Shown: positions 7,371 through 30,246 of the stretch, one piece after another
Numbering within the stretch: position 1 is the stretch's first letter
Layout of the letters: every line of letters begins with the position of its first letter
Assembly (NCBI RefSeq): GCF_004010195.1
Contig: NC_057753.1
Coordinates: 1,477,420-1,511,232, forward strand
DNA from: Chiloscyllium plagiosum
Lineage: Eukaryota
Length of the DNA stretch: 33,813 nt
Reading direction: 5' to 3'
Program-made: the position numbers and the translations under genes
The notes under the pieces: generated by a model
Told to the model about the DNA's origin: nothing
Database searches by the model: none
Seen by the model: the letters and a program-made list of their open reading frames with translations, nothing else

Positions 7371-7388
7371 GACTAACCTAGCTAGTTG

Positions 7389-7475
7389 AAAATGTGTTGC
7401 TGGAAAAGCGCAGCAGGTCAGGCAGCATCCAAGGAACAGGAGAATCGACGTTTCGGGCATAAGCCCTTCTTCAGG
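7389..7475 (-). mobile_element. Short hammerhead-bearing element, family A (intact core)
   Basis: Minus strand CCTGAAGAAGGGCTTATGCCCGAAACGTCGA. TSD AACCTAGCTAGTTG (7375-7388) / AACCTCGCTAGTTG (7476-7489). Confidence 0.85.
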
Positions 7476-7499
7476 AACCTCGCTAGTTGCTTTTTTTAA

Positions 7500-9720: not shown

Positions 9721-10058
9721 CCAATGAAGTTTCCACATTATCCTCATAATCTACTTTGCTTCATGTAATCCACATATTTTAAAATTGGCCCCGTATGCCA
9801 ATGTTTATATCATTAATATTGTGAAAATCAAGATTCCCAGGAATGAAACCAAGGCGACTCCAGCTAGATCCCATTTGTCAACCAGAAATTTATCTACGAG
9901 CCAGTACTCTGTTTCCTTTCACTCAGCCATTCTATACTTTTTCCCCCAATGAACTTAAACTTTGATCACAGGTCTGTTGTGGGACACTGGGTCACAAGCC
10001 TTCTGGAAGTCTTGGTCCACGTCAACAACTCAACCCCTTGTGCTCAAACCCCCTCAGA

Positions 10059-10247
10059 TATGGAGACGCCGGTGTTGGGCTGGGGTGGACAAAGTTAAAC
10101 ATCACACAAAACCAGGTTAGCGTTCAACAGGTTTATTTGGGAGCACTGTTCCTGCTAGCTGCCTGACGAAAGAGCAAGTGCTGTGAAAGCTAATAGTTCC
10201 AAATAAACCCATTGGACTATAACCTGGTGTTGTGTAATTTTTAGCTT
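10059..10247. mobile_element. Inverted pair of family B PLE-terminus sequences
   Basis: Minus copy 10059-10148 and plus copy 10161-10247 (CTGACGA...GAAAGCTA). Flanked by AACCCCCTCA at 10047-10056 and 10252-10261. Confidence 0.75.
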
Positions 10248-10408
10248 GGCCAACCCCCTCAAGCTCAACTGTTTATACTGCTCTTACTTAAGCCACTGTG
10301 AATGGTCCATACACTTTGCTTGCTATCTATGGATTCAGTCATTCTATACCTTGGTCTCACACCATGGTTCTTAATGGGAGGGGGGAGAAAAAGATGTAGT
10401 TTTGTTTT

Positions 10409-10765
10409 ATGATTTGGAGGTGCCGGTTTTGGAATGAGGTGAACAAAGTTACAAATTACACAACACCAGGTTATAGTCCAACAGGTTTATTTGGAAGAAC
10501 TGGCTTTCAGAGCGCTGCTTCTTCATCAGGTAACTATTCGGGCAGGATCGTAAGACACAGAATGTACAGCAAAAGATCACAGTGTATCATTTTAGTTGTA
10601 TGACACTATGATCTTGTGCTATAAGTTCTGTACCTTATGACCCTGCCCCACTAGTTACCTGATGAACGAGCTCTGAAAACTCATGCTTCCAAATAAACCT
10701 GTCACACTATAACCTGGTGTTGTGTGATTTTTAACTTTGTCCACCCCAGTCCAACACCTCCACAT
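10409..10765. mobile_element. Long imperfect palindrome of family B PLE termini
   Basis: Arms 10409-10589 (minus) and 10600-10765 (plus), each with a CTGATGA..GAAA core and AAATAAACCTGT..ACTATAACCTGGTGTTGTG. Confidence 0.85.
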
Positions 10766-11073: not shown

Positions 11074-11415
11074 AGGTGACTCAGTGGTTAGCACTGCTGC
11101 CTCACAGCGCTAGGGAGGCAGGTTAGATTCCAGCCTCGGGTGACTGTCTGTATGGAGTTTGCACATCCTCCCCAAGTCTCCGTGGGTTTCCTGCGGATGT
11201 GCCGATTTCCTCCCACAATGCAAAGATTGTGCAGGTTAGGGTGAACTGGCCATGCTAAATTGCCCATAGTGTTCAGATATGCAGGTTAGGGGCATTAGTC
11301 AGGAGTAAATATATAGTAGTAGGGGTGGGGAATGGGTCTGGATGGGTTACCATTTCAGAAGGTCAGTGTGGACTTGCTGCGTCAATAGTCCATTTCCACA
11401 CTGTAGGGATTCTAT
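11074..11415 (+). mobile_element. HE1-type V-SINE, near full length
   Basis: GGTGACTCAGTGGTTAGCACTGCTGCCTCACAGC head, V-domain, CACACTGTAGGGATTCTATG tail. Confidence 0.9.
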
Positions 11416-13344: not shown

Positions 13345-13714
<370 letters not shown>

Positions 13715-14269
13715 CAGCAGCGATTGAATTTTGCAGTGAATCATATTTGGAAGCGAACCTATTCCATTGGTAAGTCTTTCTGCTGATGTTAATGAACTGC
13801 ACTTCAGGTATAGGTTTCAGTTTTCTGGATAAATGTCAGCTTTGGATTAAACATAAAATATGTGAAGATTTTTAAAATATCTGTAACATATGTACATTAC
13901 TATTGAAGGGTTCTCCGTCTCCCCTGCCTCCTCCACCCTGACCTCCCACAGCATCGGTGAGGAGTTCATGAAGCTTCCTTGTCTCAGTCTCAGTGACAAT
14001 GTGATCATCCGTCTCTGCTGTGTCCTTCTCGTCCACAGGCTCACCAGGCCAAACACCCTCGCAATTTTCTCCTTGCATTATTCAGGAACTTCCATCTCAC
14101 TCCAGTTTTCTCTTGTCAGGCCCTACCAAAGCTTATCGTGACCTATTCTCACTGAACTATCGACCGTCTAACTCTTCTGTGTTCACTGATGTTGTTAATG
14201 GATTTGTCTCTCTCTCTCTTGGTTCTCCTCGTCTTCTTTAAACCCATCATCATGCAACGTAAGAGAAAG

Positions 14270-15959: not shown

Positions 15960-16245
15960 TTAGATTCCCTATAGTGTGGAAACAGGCCCTTCAGCCCAAC
16001 CCGACCCTCCGAAGAGAAACCCACCCAGACCCATTTTCCCTCTGACTAAAGCACCTAACACTGTGGGCAATTTAGCATGGCCAATTCACCTGACCTGCAC
16101 ATCTTCGGATTGTGGGAGGAAACCGTAGCAAACCCACGCAGAAATGGGGAGAACGTGCAAACTCCACACAGACAGTTGCCCGCCGCTGGAATTGAACCTG
16201 GGACCCTGGTGCTGTGAGGCAGCAGTGCTAACCACTGACCCACCG
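15960..16245 (-). mobile_element. HE1-type V-SINE
   Basis: Near full-length reverse complement copy. Confidence 0.9.
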
Positions 16246-16887
16246 TGAAGATGTGAGTTCACTGCACTTTTAAGAGAATGAAAAGCGAACATAACTACGT
16301 GACGGCACTAAACATTCTGAACAAGATATCATGTAACCTTTTGATCCAGCAGCTCATGTAGCTAGTTGCCTGGAGACAAAAATAAATTTGAATTCAGCCA
16401 ATCACTTTAAATTATGTCCCCCCCAAAAAATACCAAACTCCAATCAAGTTTGAATTCAGCATATTGACAATATTAAAACCAATGACACAATCTGAGGCTT
16501 TGGGAGCAGAAGATCAGGAAGAATTAAACACAGAACTCTGTGAAAGGTACCTGTCCAGAGAGTTTGCACAGAGGAAAAAGAACGTCACCTACCTGGAGAG
16601 CAAATCTACAGAGGAAGATACAATAGGTGGCTGGTTTTAAACTTTGAATTTTGGTAAATCTTAATCAGGGGTTTTATCGGACTACTACTGTAGAAGAGGA
16701 AGGTAAAAGATAGGTTAGAGAAAGGAGTTTGGAATAGTTGTTAGTTATTATTATCTGTGATACTTTAAGAAATAATGTTAATTTTTACTTTAAATAGTTC
16801 TTGGCTTCTCAAATTTTCACAGATTACTGCACCTTGTCTGTTTTGCTGGTTGAAATTAAGCAGAAGGGTTTACCCTGTGACGTAACA
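16246..16887 (+). mobile_element. Solo-LTR-like repeat
   Basis: 5' end matches 8980-9111. Contains CCAAT boxes. Ends CGTAACA, inverted-complementary to the TGTTATG start of the other copy. Confidence 0.6.
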
Positions 16888-16951
16888 TGAAGTAATTGCT
16901 TTTTAACTGTTGCAGACTCGATAGGCCACCTCAGTATCACAAACTTTCCCC

Positions 16952-17080
16952 ATTCCTGAAGAAGGGCTTATGCCTGAAACGTCGATTCTCCTGTTCCCTG
17001 GATGCTGCCTGACCTGCTGCGCTTTTCCAGCAACACATTTCCAGCTCTGATCTCCAGCATCTGCAGACCTCACTTTCTCC
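16952..17080 (+). mobile_element. Short hammerhead-bearing element, family A (long form)
   Basis: ATTCCTGAAGAAGGGCTTATGCCTGAAACGTCGA. CCACCTCAGTATCA duplicated at 16926-16939 and 17079-17092. Confidence 0.85.
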
Positions 17081-17984
17081 ACCTCAGTATCAACGTGCCA
17101 GTGTCTTTCCAGTTCATCTAAACCATTTCCTACAGTCACCACATTTTTCCGGACTCTCCTCACTGTGACACTCTTGTGTCTGGAGTGGCCAGATGGTCAA
17201 CTGAAACCTCATGCTCTAGCTATGGTTTCATCCGACTGTGAACAGTGGTGTTTCCTTCCAAGTTCAACATCTGACGGAATTTCAATTATGATAAATCTGA
17301 CAAATCGTCCTGATCCTGTTGTGATGTTTAGTTTCAGTTTCCCGAATACAAATCTTTGTTTTCAGCGTCTGATTTAATTGAATGAAAATGGCAGAAAGGT
17401 GAGAGAGAGAGAGGCACAAAAAATGCAAAGGTAGGTTGTAAATTTTGGGGGGGGGTGGAGAGAAAAATAACGTACTGTGATGTTGAAATTGCTTCCTTGT
17501 CTTTCCTTCCATTATACTGTCACTCTGCCTCATTAATCAGATATTGGTAATGAAAGGCGAATGCAGCTCGATGGACAAGTTTTCTTCATTCTGAACAATG
17601 GCGGAAAGCTCCTCCCATCTTTCCAAACATGGCTGCCTCCAGAAATGGTGGCCGCACATGAATAATTTCGACCTGTGCCCCCAATAGAGATGGTGACCAA
17701 TCCCCAGGCCTTTCTCTGGGGAAGAAACCTGGAGTCGTTGTCCCATTTCACTGCAAGCAGAGGACCGACAGGGGTTTGCGGGTGACAGAAAATATTTTGA
17801 AAGCCAGTCCGCCATCCATTGGCTGATCCATTGCTTACTCCGATCCCCCTCATTCTCAGCCTCTGTGGAGTTGAAAAACTGACCACTGACAACCTGGTGA
17901 AGGATTAGGATGACGTATGTGGTTCACGGTAACTAGTAGTGGACAGGAACTATGCATGCTCCAACTCACAACAGGGATGAATGG

Positions 17985-20069: not shown

Positions 20070-20356
20070 GGGTGTGGCTCAGTAGTTAGCACCGTTGCCT
20101 CACAGCACCAGGGTCCCAGGTTCAATTCCAGCCTCGGGTGACTGTCTGTGTGGAGTTTGCACGTTCTCCCCGTGTCTGCGTGGGTTTCCTCCCATAGTCC
20201 AAAGATGTGCAGGCCAGGTGAATTGTTCATGCTAAATTGCCCAAAGTGTTAGGTGCATTAGGCAGAGGGAAATAGGTCTGGGTGGGTTACTCTTCGGAGG
20301 GTCGGTGTGGACTGGTTGGGCCGAAGGGCCTGTTTCCCCACTGTAGGGAACCTAAT
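20070..20356 (+). mobile_element. HE1-type V-SINE
   Basis: Head with A/B-box-like motifs, V-domain and tail. Confidence 0.92.
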
Positions 20357-20687: not shown

Positions 20688-20884
20688 TGTGAGCATGCTG
20701 ATGTGTCAGCAGAGTGACTAACACAGTGAGTCCCTCACACACTCTGGACAGGTTAATGGTGGTTTGTGATCATGCTGATGTGTCAGCAGACAGACTAACA
20801 CAGTGAGTCCCTCACACACTCTGGACAGGTTAATGGTGGTTTGTGAGCATGCTGATGTGTCAGCAGAGTGGCTAACAGAGTGAA
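20688..20884. repeat. 77-bp tandem repeat of a zinc-finger unit (about 2.5 copies)
   Basis: CATGCTGATGTGTCAGCAGA recurs at 20694, 20771 and 20848. Confidence 0.93.
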
Positions 20885-21541
20885 TTCTTTGCCACACTCA
20901 GGGCAGGTGAAAGGCCCCTTCCCAGTTTGAACGTCCTGGTCTGATAGCAGCTTGGATGAATGAGTAAATTCCTTCCCACACTTGGAACATATGAACAGTC
21001 TCTCCCCAGCGTGAACCCGCTGGTGACTCAGCAGGGAGAATAACTCAGCGAATCCCTTCCCACACTCAGGACAGGCCAGTTGTTTCGGCTGAGTATGAAT
21101 TTTCTGGTGTTTCAGCAATCTGGATCCCCGAGTGAATTCTTTCCCACACTTGGAGCAGGAGAATGTTTCCCCAGTGTGAGTTCGCTGGTGTACAGAGAGA
21201 TGGGATGATCGCCTGAAACGACTCCCACAGTGAGAACATCTGAATGGCCTTTCATCAGTGTGAACACGTTGATGGGACAGCAGGTTCCCAGTACTTTTAA
21301 AGCACATCCCACAGTCTGGACATTTAAAAGGTCTCTCATCGGTGTGAACCCGCTGGTGTCTCAGTAGGTCAGATGACAAGGCAAATCTCTTCCCACAAAC
21401 AGAGCAAAAGAATGGCTTCTCGCCAGTGTGAGTACGTCGGTGGGTTTCCAGCTGAGATGGATATCTGAATCCTACTTTGCAGTCCACACATTTCCATGGT
21501 TTGTCGCCAGTGAGCTTATCAACACTGTTTTCTCCATCCAT
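20795..21541 (-). CDS. Tandem C2H2 (Kruppel-type) zinc-finger protein, 248 aa from first in-frame ATG
   Basis: Open frame with CxxC-x12-HxxxH units and TGEKP/TDERP linkers. Fingers 1-6 and 8 intact, finger 7 lacks both His, finger 9 is truncated by a frameshift. No effector domain seen. Acceptor TTTCACAG at 21632-21633. Confidence 0.88.
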
Positions 21542-21779
21542 ACTCAAGATTCTTATCAGGCTATGGTAAATTCAGCAACTTTGTCAGCTCTGATGTGACG
21601 TTTGCGTTGTAAATCCTCCATCTTAAATGTTCTGTGAAATTGAATTAAAGCATAAAAAAGAAACTGAAAGAGAACTCTTGAGAGAAAACAGGCAGGTTGT
21701 GCAATTAACTGAATGAATGTAGTAACTTGTGGGGCAGTACATTGAACTCTCCTGAAGTGTTGAGACATCCAAAACTTTG

Positions 21780-23254: not shown

Positions 23255-23718
23255 CCTTCCCAATCAGACATTGGGCCAATGCATCTTAATGGACCAAGTT
23301 GTCAATCCATTCTGAACAATGGGCAGCAAACCCCGCCCACTATTGCCCCAGAGCACGAGCGGCCGCACATGCGCCCTGCTGCCCAGCTCCCCCACCCCAC
23401 AGAGAAGGCTGACGTCACCACGCGGTATAAAATTAGGAGCTGGGACCCAGTTCCCTGCAAACGGCGAGACCGTTTCAGATTTGTAATTCACGGAAGACGC
23501 TGACGAAGTCTCTTTCCCCTCCCCCCCGTTCGCTTCCTCCGTCCCGTCTGAACCTCACCCTTTACGGAACCGACACAAACAGTCCTCCCTCCGCAGGACC
23601 CCATTCCGCGCATGCTCTATACGCTGCACGGCACTACGCCTGCGTCTCGCTCTGTTTTGTGACCAGGTTACATTCACCGCCGCACTGCATGCTGGGTTAA
23701 CAGCACGCCATTTAATAT
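23255..23718. promoter_or_regulatory. CpG-rich promoter region
   Basis: Most CpG-dense non-repeat segment of the window. CCAAT boxes 23260-23281, GC box near 23330, CRE TGACGTCA 23410-23417, TATAAAA 23426-23432, NRF1-like GCGCATGC 23608-23615, ZNF143-like CGCACTGCATGCTGGGTT 23681-23698. Confidence 0.7.
23559..23610 (-). other. Predicted first exon of ZNF gene (5' boundary uncertain)
   Basis: Donor AGG|GTGAGG at 23558, just downstream of NRF1-like and ZNF143-like motifs. Confidence 0.5.
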
Positions 23719-23809
23719 CCCTGAAGAAGGGCTTATGCCCGAAACGTCGATTCTCCTGTTCCTCGGATGCTGCCTGACCTGCTGCGCTTTTCCAGCAACA
23801 TATTTTCAG
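23719..23809 (+). mobile_element. Short hammerhead-bearing element, family A (intact core)
   Basis: CCCTGAAGAAGGGCTTATGCCCGAAACGTCGA. Perfect 13-bp TSD CGCCATTTAATAT (23706-23718 / 23810-23822). Confidence 0.9.
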
Positions 23810-24069
23810 CGCCATTTAATATGCCAATCTAGGTCTCGACTATTTTTTCAGTTTTAAGTTCTTCCAAATTATGGATTGAAGTTTAAGTTTTTAAATCTTC
23901 AATTTTAAATGTTCTAGACGCTAAATAAAAAAGTTCAGAAGCGGCGTTTATAGTGATAATCATTTGAGGCAGAGACTGATGCAATAATACACGCAGCATC
24001 TTATGTGTTAAGGATCATTGATGTAAGTCGTAGAGTTATACAGCGCGGATACTGCACATTTGAATAAAA

Positions 24070-27101: not shown

Positions 27102-27220
27102 AAGGGCCTGTGCCCGAAACGTCGAATCTCCTGTTCCCTGGATGCTGCCTGACCTGCTGTGCTGTTCCAGCAATAAAGTTTCAACTTTGATCTCCAGCAT
27201 CTGCAGACCTCACTTTCTCC
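27102..27220 (+). mobile_element. Family A element lacking the CUGANGA half-core
   Basis: AAGGGCCTGTGCCCGAAACGTCGAATCTCCTG... ending in the same CACTTTCTCC as 17080. Confidence 0.8.
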
Positions 27221-27239: not shown

Positions 27240-27335
27240 ACTGAAGAAGGGTCACTAGACCTGAAATGTTAACTGCTTTCTTTCCATCGATGCTGCCAGA
27301 CCTACTGAGCCTTTTTCACCAAATTCTGATTTTGT
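27240..27335 (+). mobile_element. Older hammerhead-bearing element, family C
   Basis: CTGAAGA-A-GGGTC-ACTA-GACCT-GAAATGTT, then GATGCTGCCAGACCT shared with family A. Confidence 0.65.
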
Positions 27336-27569: not shown

Positions 27570-29070
27570 AGCATGTAAACAAACTTGTCCATGCTGACCA
27601 AATTGTCCATCCACTCCAACCCCCTTTCCCTGCAGCTGGCCCATGTCCTTCTAATCCTTTCCTATCTGTGCTTTTGTGCAAATGCCTTTTAAAATGTTGT
27701 TAATGTACCCACCTCCACCATTTCCATTGGCAGCTCATTCCATATGCGTACCACCCTCTGTGTAAAAAAAGTTGACCTTCAGGTTTCCTTTTATCGTTTC
27801 TCCTCTAGCCTTAAACTGATGGCCTCTCGTCCTCTAGATTCCCCAACACTAAGAAAACCATTGAGTGCCTTTACCCTATCCTTGCCTCCCATGATTTTAT
27901 ACATTTCTATAAGATCCCCTCAGTCTCCTACACAGAATAAAAACGTCCTAGCTTGTCCAACCTCTCCCTATAACTGACTGTTGAGCCCAGGTAACATCCC
28001 TATAAAATTTCTTCTGCACTCTTTCCAGTTTAATAACATCCTTCCTATCGCAAGGTGACCAAAAGTGAACACAATACTCCAACTGCGGCCTCATCAACGT
28101 CCTGTACAATTGCAGCATAACTTCCCCAACTTCTGTATTCAATGCCCTGACTGATGAAGGCCAGTGTGCCAAAAGTCTTCTTCACTGCCCTGTCTACCTG
28201 TGTCTCCACTTTCAGAGAACTGTGCACCTGAACTCCAAGGTCCCTTTCTCCACTGCAATCGTTAAGGTCCTACATTTCACCATGCACTCCTACCTTGATT
28301 TGACTATCCAAAATGCCAGGTCTCACAGCGGGCAGCATGGTGGTACAATGGTTAGCGCTGCTGCCTCACAGCGCCAGAGACCCGGGTTCAATTCCCACTT
28401 CAGCCAACTGGCTGTGTGGAGTTTGCACATTTCCCGTGTCTGTGTGGGTTTGCTCTGGTTTCCTCCCACAGTCCAAAAATGTGCAAGTTAGGTGAATTGG
28501 TCATGCTAAATTGCCCATAGCGTTAGGTGCATTAGTCAGAGGGAAATGGGTCTGTGTGGGTTGGTCTTCGGAAGGTTGGTGTGGACTTGTTGGGCCGAAG
28601 GGCCTGTTTCCACACTAAGTAATCCAAATCATATCATCTAAGTAAACTCCATTTGCCATATTTTGGCCTACTTCCCCAACTGCAATTTTCAATAACCTTC
28701 CTCGCTGATCACGATACCACTTATTTTAGTGTGTTCGGTAAACTTACAAATCATTGATATAGATAACAAACAGCAATGGGGCAAATAGTAAACCCTGAGA
28801 CACTCCACTAGTCACAGGTCTCCTCTGCTTCTGACCATCAATCTAATTGTATATCTAGTTTGCCAGCTCCCCCGATTTCATGTGACCTAATCTTCCAGAG
28901 AAGCGTACCATTTGGCACCTTATCAACACCCTTACTAAAATCTACCATCTTGCCTTCATTAACCTTCCTTGCTATTTCAAAGAACTCTAATAAATTTGTG
29001 AGGAATGGTCTCCCATGCACAAAGCCATGTTAAGTACTCCTAATCAAACCCCATCTTTCTAAATGCATGA
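27570..29070 (-). mobile_element. CR1 ORF2 fragment interrupted by a SINE
   Basis: MLQLYRTLMRPQLEYCVHFWSP..KLERVQKKF and LTNLLEFFE..DFSKGVDKVP. Confidence 0.88.
28329..28635 (+). mobile_element. HE1-type V-SINE
   Basis: Full head, V-domain and tail. Confidence 0.9.
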
Positions 29071-30084: not shown

Positions 30085-30246
30085 AATCTGAAACAAACAC
30101 ACAAATAGCTGGAAAATCTCAGAAGATCTGGCAGCAGCTGTGGAGAGAGACCAGAGCTTATATTTCCGATCGAATGATCCTTACCCAGAACTGATAGTTC
30201 TGATTTCTCTCCACAGCTGCTGGCAGGCCTGCTTAGATTCTGTAGC
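30085..30246. mobile_element. Degenerate family C sequence with an inverted partial copy
   Basis: GGCAGCAGCTGTGGAGAGA (about 30129-30147) faces TCTCTCCACAGCTGCTGGC (about 30206-30224). Confidence 0.5.

Follow-up and report, generated by a model that had tools for sequence, protein, structure and literature searches.

The window analysed here, 33,813 nucleotides of Chiloscyllium plagiosum DNA, contains five copies of a short repeat (family A) that carries a minimal hammerhead motif, and we confirm that the ribozyme-bearing units flanked by target-site duplications (TSDs), which had been noticed in this sequence, are real. The units are likely to be extremely 5'-truncated, dead-on-arrival end modules (the end of a pLTR with or without a tail) derived from a Penelope-like element (PLE) with an endonuclease, and the source element was probably of the Neptune type.

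Family A units are discrete insertions

The focal copy of family A, a 91 bp unit with a short 3' end, extends from 23719 to 23809 on the forward strand. It is framed by a 13 bp TSD, in which the left copy (23706-23718, +) matches perfectly the right copy (23810-23822, +) identified by a flanking direct-repeat search. Three other units are bordered in the same way: an 87 bp unit with a short 3' end on the reverse strand (7389-7475; TSD of 14 bp with one mismatch at 7476-7489 and 7375-7388), a 119 bp unit with a long 3' end on the forward strand (13470-13588; TSD of 17 bp with one mismatch at 13453-13469 and 13589-13605), and a 139 bp unit with a long 3' end, also forward (16940-17078; perfect TSD of 14 bp at 16926-16939 and 17079-17092). 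The duplicated flanks of 13-17 bp that had been predicted for four copies are thus upheld; they are flush with the units, and an equal score was reached at only 2 of 150 random positions in the window. The fifth copy (27102-27220, +), which has a long 3' end, displayed no convincing duplication in the flanking direct-repeat search. The original prediction placed the third unit at 16952-17080 and gave a size range of 87-129 bp. The actual span, which includes 16 nt upstream of the core, 12 of them upstream of stem I, corrects this range to 87-139 bp. Over their shared part the copies are 84-98% identical.

The motif around which the five copies were predicted to be built is supported, from its sequence features, as a minimal hammerhead of type I, like those of Penelope elements. 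The pattern CTGAWGA-A-GGGC-N4-GCCC-GAAACGT matched four times in the window, at 7448-7474 (-), 13472, 16956 and 23721, with 0, 1, 1 and 0 mismatches, respectively, against 0.00 matches in 100 shuffles. A generic scan for perfect hammerhead cores gave five matches against a shuffle mean of 0.03. The 27102-27220 copy begins inside the core and, as had been described, lacks the CUGANGA half. In the focal copy the motif, recognized by both pattern and core scans, occupies 23721-23748 of the forward strand and comprises C3-A9 (23721-23727), the extra A (23728), stem II (23729-23732 with 23737-23740), GAA (23741-23743), the palindrome ACGU (23744-23747) and C17 (23748); by hammerhead convention the predicted cut lies between 23748 and 23749. 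The core (CUGANGA ... GAAA ... UH, one additional base ahead of stem II, and a G10.1-C11.1 pair) is intact in four of the five copies. Stem III of all copies is the loopless palindrome ACGU, stem I is weak, with about two pairs followed by a U-U mismatch, and the sole stable hairpin of the motif is stem II. Of the single stem mismatches previously ascribed to two copies, that at 13472 is a true A-C mismatch, which breaks the first stem II pair, whereas that at 16956 is a G-U wobble.

These characteristics are similar to those of the minimal hammerheads of metazoan PLEs (Cervera and De la Pena 2014, PMC4209133), which share the type I core, the additional base between positions 9 and 10.1, the G10.1-C11.1 pair, the palindromic stem III and the presence of several families per genome, the motifs being mostly single and ascribed to truncated PLEs. 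The stems of family A (4 bp in stem II; about 2 bp and a mismatch in stem I) are, however, shorter than those of Schistosoma (7-8 and 4-5 bp, PMC4209133). Sharks are not named among the hosts of minimal hammerheads in the accessible part of that paper.

It could be argued that the motif is fortuitous, or resides in a repeat that is not mobile, a view to which we attach almost no probability. It would be consistent with the Rfam scan of the window, which returned no hammerhead family at E<=5, and with the unremarkable folding energy of the whole units, which are no more stable than shuffled sequences (z -0.83 to +0.96). It is already refuted, however, by motif counts far above those of shuffles, by the zinc-finger register and empty sites described below, and by compensatory stems between families. 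Stem II covariation, suggested as a further check, was not evident within family A, where no compensatory change reached 4% of depth in the contigs of three species, but was clear between families: compensating changes in the pairs of stem II and stem I distinguish families A, B and C and their marine relatives, in all of which stem III remains palindromic (ACGU or AGCU).

Families B and C are themselves represented in the window. Family B units, with a 5 bp stem II, are located at 27241-27335 (+), 20 bp after the 27102 family A copy, and at about 30093-30182 (-); they share with family A the downstream GATGCTGCC-type motif and an MLPDLL-like frame. Family C units, characterized by an AGCU palindrome, occur at 2524 (+), 10057-10147 (-), 10163 (+), 10406-10532 (-) and 10659 (+), and include two pairs arranged head-to-head in inverted orientation.

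The units are discrete insertions, as originally proposed, because the register of an interrupted zinc-finger array is restored by one unit and one duplication, and because empty sites exist in related species. The 13470 unit is inserted in a decayed C2H2 zinc-finger array (13354-13770, +), in which successive linker codons are 220 bp apart, the sum of a finger (84), the unit (119) and the duplication (17). An open C2H2 zinc-finger frame of 258 amino acids is present on the other strand at 20798-21571 (-). With respect to empty sites, contig sets derived from the DNA of three species were aligned to 16790-17239, and the 16940-17078 locus lacked the unit in organisms B and C. In a contig of organism B (depth 9.8) the left piece ends at 16928 and the alignment resumes at 17082 (position 74 of the record), a skip of 153 bp that corresponds to the 139 bp unit and the 14 bp duplication; this skip was deduced from substitution and insertion rows of equal depth rather than read off a joint row. 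A 914 nt contig of organism C passes straight from 16931 to 17099. As this site is short of 14 further bp relative to a clean empty site, a later deletion may underlie the absence of the unit in organism C.

Ends, joints and the predicted cut site in three species

The high abundance anticipated for family A was evident in all three species, with tens of thousands of matching contigs per run. The 16790-17239 region was matched by 73,821, 45,383 and 55,580 contigs, numbers that also cover a small adjacent repeat and the core common to family B and hence are not copy numbers. The loose ends and joints reported below are from the best-supported rows (810 loose-end and 63 joint rows are left out), and the contigs themselves drop rare variants.

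The largest 3' loose end listed was at 17080, represented by 1178, 1178 and 1478 contigs in the three species; beyond it there are three shared letters and then unrelated sequence. The second, at 17036-17040, is followed by about ten family letters before the flanks become unrelated. These two 3' ends, about 35 nt apart, agree with the window copies, whose 3' ends are positioned 86 and 89 nt (short) or 117 and 123 nt (long) from C3. Family A thus displays an optional tail of 30-40 bp that gives rise to two 3' ends, matching the two reverse transcriptase (RT) start sites and 30-40 bp tail described for anole Poseidon (PMC11167929, PMC8557442, PMC3846280). The long 3' end (17068-17080) resembles a 3' splice site, with a pyrimidine run and then AG, and the same is true of marine relatives (L010 and others); in family A TAG comes next. 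It may represent an intron end beside the tail.

The 5' ends are more complex. In the window three of the five units start 1-2 nt before C3, another begins 16 nt ahead of the core and the last within it. In the contigs the top 5' loose ends listed were at 16951-16952 (334, 257 and 257 contigs), and positions 16952-16954 are the site of many joints. Longer forms also exist, as 39 contigs run upstream of 16939 with an agreement of 0.85, and a second version of the upstream sequence branches at 16951. The pile-up at 16951-16952 is due in part to a subfamily difference in the sequence that precedes the reference copy, and thus overstates true 5' ends. In organism C the loose ends at this position have no common consensus (0.32). 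Random truncation alone leaves the three units starting 1-2 nt before C3 unexplained.

The main alternative proposal is that family A is a dedicated SINE-like, non-autonomous family, in which a short RNA starting just upstream of the hammerhead, generated either from its own start site or as a processed end within a master pLTR, is copied whole in trans by a Penelope enzyme, so that each unit would be a complete copy of a short template instead of a truncation. The clustered starts of the window units, the 16951-16952 loose ends and adjacent joints, and the lack of a shared consensus in organism C are consistent with such a model, as are the reports that PLE pLTRs carry promoters (Schostak et al. 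2008, PMC2377424) and act in trans (PMC3846280). We consider the proposal improbable, however, as upstream-continuing copies exist in two sequence versions, the subfamily difference inflates the pile-up, and two window copies do not share the common start. Furthermore, Pol III A and B boxes are found in none of the five units, whereas the control, a SINE-like repeat at 20074, has both. This control repeat, a putative HE1/V-SINE, is present at 46-219, 11076-11414, 16035-16244, 20074-20354 and 28340-28628. It is similarly doubtful that a programmed boundary, formed by the start of an RNA or by a fixed stopping point of the Penelope RT, coincides with the 5' edge of the hammerhead. If it did, sharks would have amplified a self-contained ribozyme-headed, SINE-like Penelope parasite of ~90-130 nt to very high copy number, and the hammerhead would be a structural or protein-binding signal rather than a cutter.

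Inverted joints were observed in all three species, and connect 17040 to 17080 (short end to long end) and 16953 to 17000 (5' end to an internal piece in inverted orientation). All three species also contained head-to-tail joints leading back to 16952, but those listed were rare, with 1-3 contigs per row compared with more than 1000 long-end junctions.

There was no evidence that the templates of these copies had been cleaved. In run X1 the depth was 7.82 million at both 16983 and 16984, on either side of the predicted cut, and there was no excess of copies starting at that site. We favour an uncleaved template because the depth has no step at the cut site. The core letters decay like other CpG sites: the CpG positions of the core were changed in 7.7, 8.7, 10.5 and 5.2% of depth, compared with 8.2% at a non-core CpG.

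These data bear on the possibility that the units are solo copies of a non-LTR retrozyme, in which a tandem array is transcribed, self-cleaved as dimers and circularized, and the circle is then reverse transcribed. Family A resembles such elements in being non-coding, in its type I hammerhead and relationship to pLTRs, in its likely mobilization by PLEs and in its dispersed monomers (PMC7229834; Li et al. 2026). The head-to-tail joints back to 16952 might be taken as support, as might the dispersed, pLTR-derived monomers reported in vertebrates, including one chondrichthyan (bioRxiv 10.64898/2026.07.22.740005). Non-LTR retrozymes, however, form tandem arrays with at least two ribozymes, and circular RNAs where tested (PMC7229834), and their ribozyme is canonical rather than minimal (Cervera and De la Pena 2020, PMC7229834). 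In family A no tandem array of at least two ribozyme-bearing units was found, the window holding five single copies and the contigs only rare tandem joints. None of the five window copies is permuted at the cut site, as a circular origin would predict, all being collinear and ribozyme first, and two different 3' ends are attached to one 5' region. The 12 additional bases with which the 16940 copy begins (16940-16951) were considered as a circular junction, but this was ruled out by the contigs of the three species, in which they continue into the upstream consensus and not into the 3' end of the unit itself. Together with the absence of a depth step at the cut site and the rarity of tandem joints, these features make a retrozyme origin very unlikely.

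Relationship with Penelope-like elements

A rearranged PLE open reading frame (ORF) relic at 236-716 is not joined to a family A unit. It comprises an inverted RT piece (236-370, -) head-to-head with a piece that contains the C-terminus of the GIY-YIG domain and the start of the 3' region (+, from ~380). Its best protein match is a Chiloscyllium protein (88% identity). The relic appears to have affinity with Neptune or Nematis because its nearest proteins carry a CxxxxCxxC linker, a trait of these groups (Craig et al. 2021, PMC8557442). The Pfam scan took in 145 of the 345 stop-to-stop frames of at least 45 amino acids. No junction of family A with a shark endonuclease ORF was found in the relic, which stops near 716, before any hammerhead, or in the 30-letter loose ends.

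Relatives of the shark Penelope proteins were identified at 94 loci in metagenome and metagenome-assembled genome (MAG) contigs, which appear to be host-derived, and none were found in viral contigs. The bacterial MAG records L081-L094 contain eukaryotic PLEs, which points to host contamination. At 21 of the 66 loci that retain the endonuclease end and at least 300 nt beyond it, a strict minimal hammerhead, mostly with a near-family-A core, follows the endonuclease end by 92-153 nt on the same strand. The 3' ends of the relatives are bimodal (n=53), with 23 at 89-107, 26 at 146-161, none between and 4 shorter. Their tail is ~50 nt, compared with ~35 nt in family A, and they resemble family A in the ribozyme alone (26-35 nt, E 0.002-0.009). 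Because the likeness beyond the ribozyme is not significant, the marine relatives would appear to share an architecture with family A rather than its parentage. With respect to the mobilizer, the proposed Penelope RT/GIY-YIG protein is likely, given the joints, the two ends and the layout of the relatives, but contiguity with the ORF is seen only in those relatives.

Scans for the pattern of the shark copies gave 0 matches in viral contigs, 0 in genome contigs and 0 in metagenome contigs. Twelve bacterial matches from a further genome scan were discarded, as they lacked any extension and 11 of the 12 corresponded to Walker A-like peptides on the other strand. A frame beginning MLPDLL is open in all five family A copies and recurs in family B. 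Its role as the start of an ORF was not supported: searches, weak with such short queries, gave 0, 3 and 2 matches, none of them an RT protein.

A close parallel is the Poseidon element PAc of Anolis carolinensis, in which internal initiation at two sites defines a 30-40 bp tail, the template is uncleaved with no RNA ends at the cut site, and insertion in vitro does not depend on cleavage (Frangieh et al. 2024, PMC11167929). In family A, likewise, two 3' ends separated by the length of a tail lie downstream of a hammerhead, no ends are seen at the cut site, and the template is apparently uncleaved. In contrast to PAc, the nearest proteins of the shark relic have the linker indicative of Neptune or Nematis (PMC8557442), and while the PAc ORF starts inside the ribozyme (PMC11167929) the MLPDLL frame matched no RT protein. 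Clustering of 5' truncations at the ribozyme edge, as seen in family A, is not reported in the accessible part of the PAc study (PMC11167929).

EN-positive PLE units consist of a pLTR with an optional tail and an inverted 5' copy, and also occur as solo pLTRs (Arkhipova et al. 2013, PMC3846280; PMC8557442). Their insertions display TSDs, strong 5' truncation, an optional tail and inverted or partial-tandem joints (PMC3846280, PMC8557442), and in family A we found the TSD, an empty orthologous site and both types of joint. The family A TSDs (13-17 bp) are longer than the 8-10 bp of Adineta, and the units are shorter, and far more numerous, than the ~200 bp pLTRs of that rotifer (PMC3846280). 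Further literature on these systems is provided by PMC6765202 and PMC6155905.

Origin and significance of the units

The explanation that we consider quite probable is that family A consists of 3' end modules from a Neptune-type element, produced by an internal start, copying of the uncut ribozyme and early truncation, and subject thereafter to neutral decay. In this scheme the RT/GIY-YIG protein of the element would nick the target, and reverse transcription would be primed inside the element RNA at one of two sites ~35 nt apart, generating 3' ends that lie 86-89 nt (short) or 117-123 nt (long) from C3. Copying would pass through the uncleaved hammerhead and often halt at the edge of stem I that faces upstream. 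Another nick, offset by 13-17 bp, would create the TSD, and each inserted copy would then decay neutrally. The identity of the enzyme, the internal priming and the cause of the 5' end clustering are steps that we infer. The original prediction offered mini-retroelements or terminal stubs; the second option is preferable to a separate class of mini-retroelements, since some forms extend further upstream and the pair of 3' ends agrees with the known pLTR-plus-tail anatomy.

As a class of element family A is ordinary, its kind having already been described in other animals. The original view of the short unit with duplicated flanks as unusual is not supported: truncation at the 5' end, TSDs, solo pLTRs and the wide occurrence of single minimal hammerheads are all published (PMC4209133; PMC3846280; Goubert et al. 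2022, PMC8969392). Such hammerheads probably derive from truncated PLEs, and their cleavage is low even as dimers (PMC4209133). No paper devoted to these shark families was listed by the literature searches, while Dfam and Repbase, in which a library name may exist, lay outside the search.

Family A has also been read into shark gene models, including a PDZ-domain protein, a FUBP3-like protein (Chiloscyllium) and a whale shark prediction (P0122, P0124, P0125, P0126), through either exonization or annotation error, and its intrusion into host gene models matters for shark annotation. This study adds two independent empty-site checks, a two-end pattern in three species and a matching layout in endonuclease-linked relatives. 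With over 1000 independent junctions in each species at a single 3' end, family A offers an in vivo test bed for the internal-initiation model demonstrated in vitro for the anole element, and shark genomes are well suited to asking what the Penelope hammerhead does if the RNA that is copied stays uncut.
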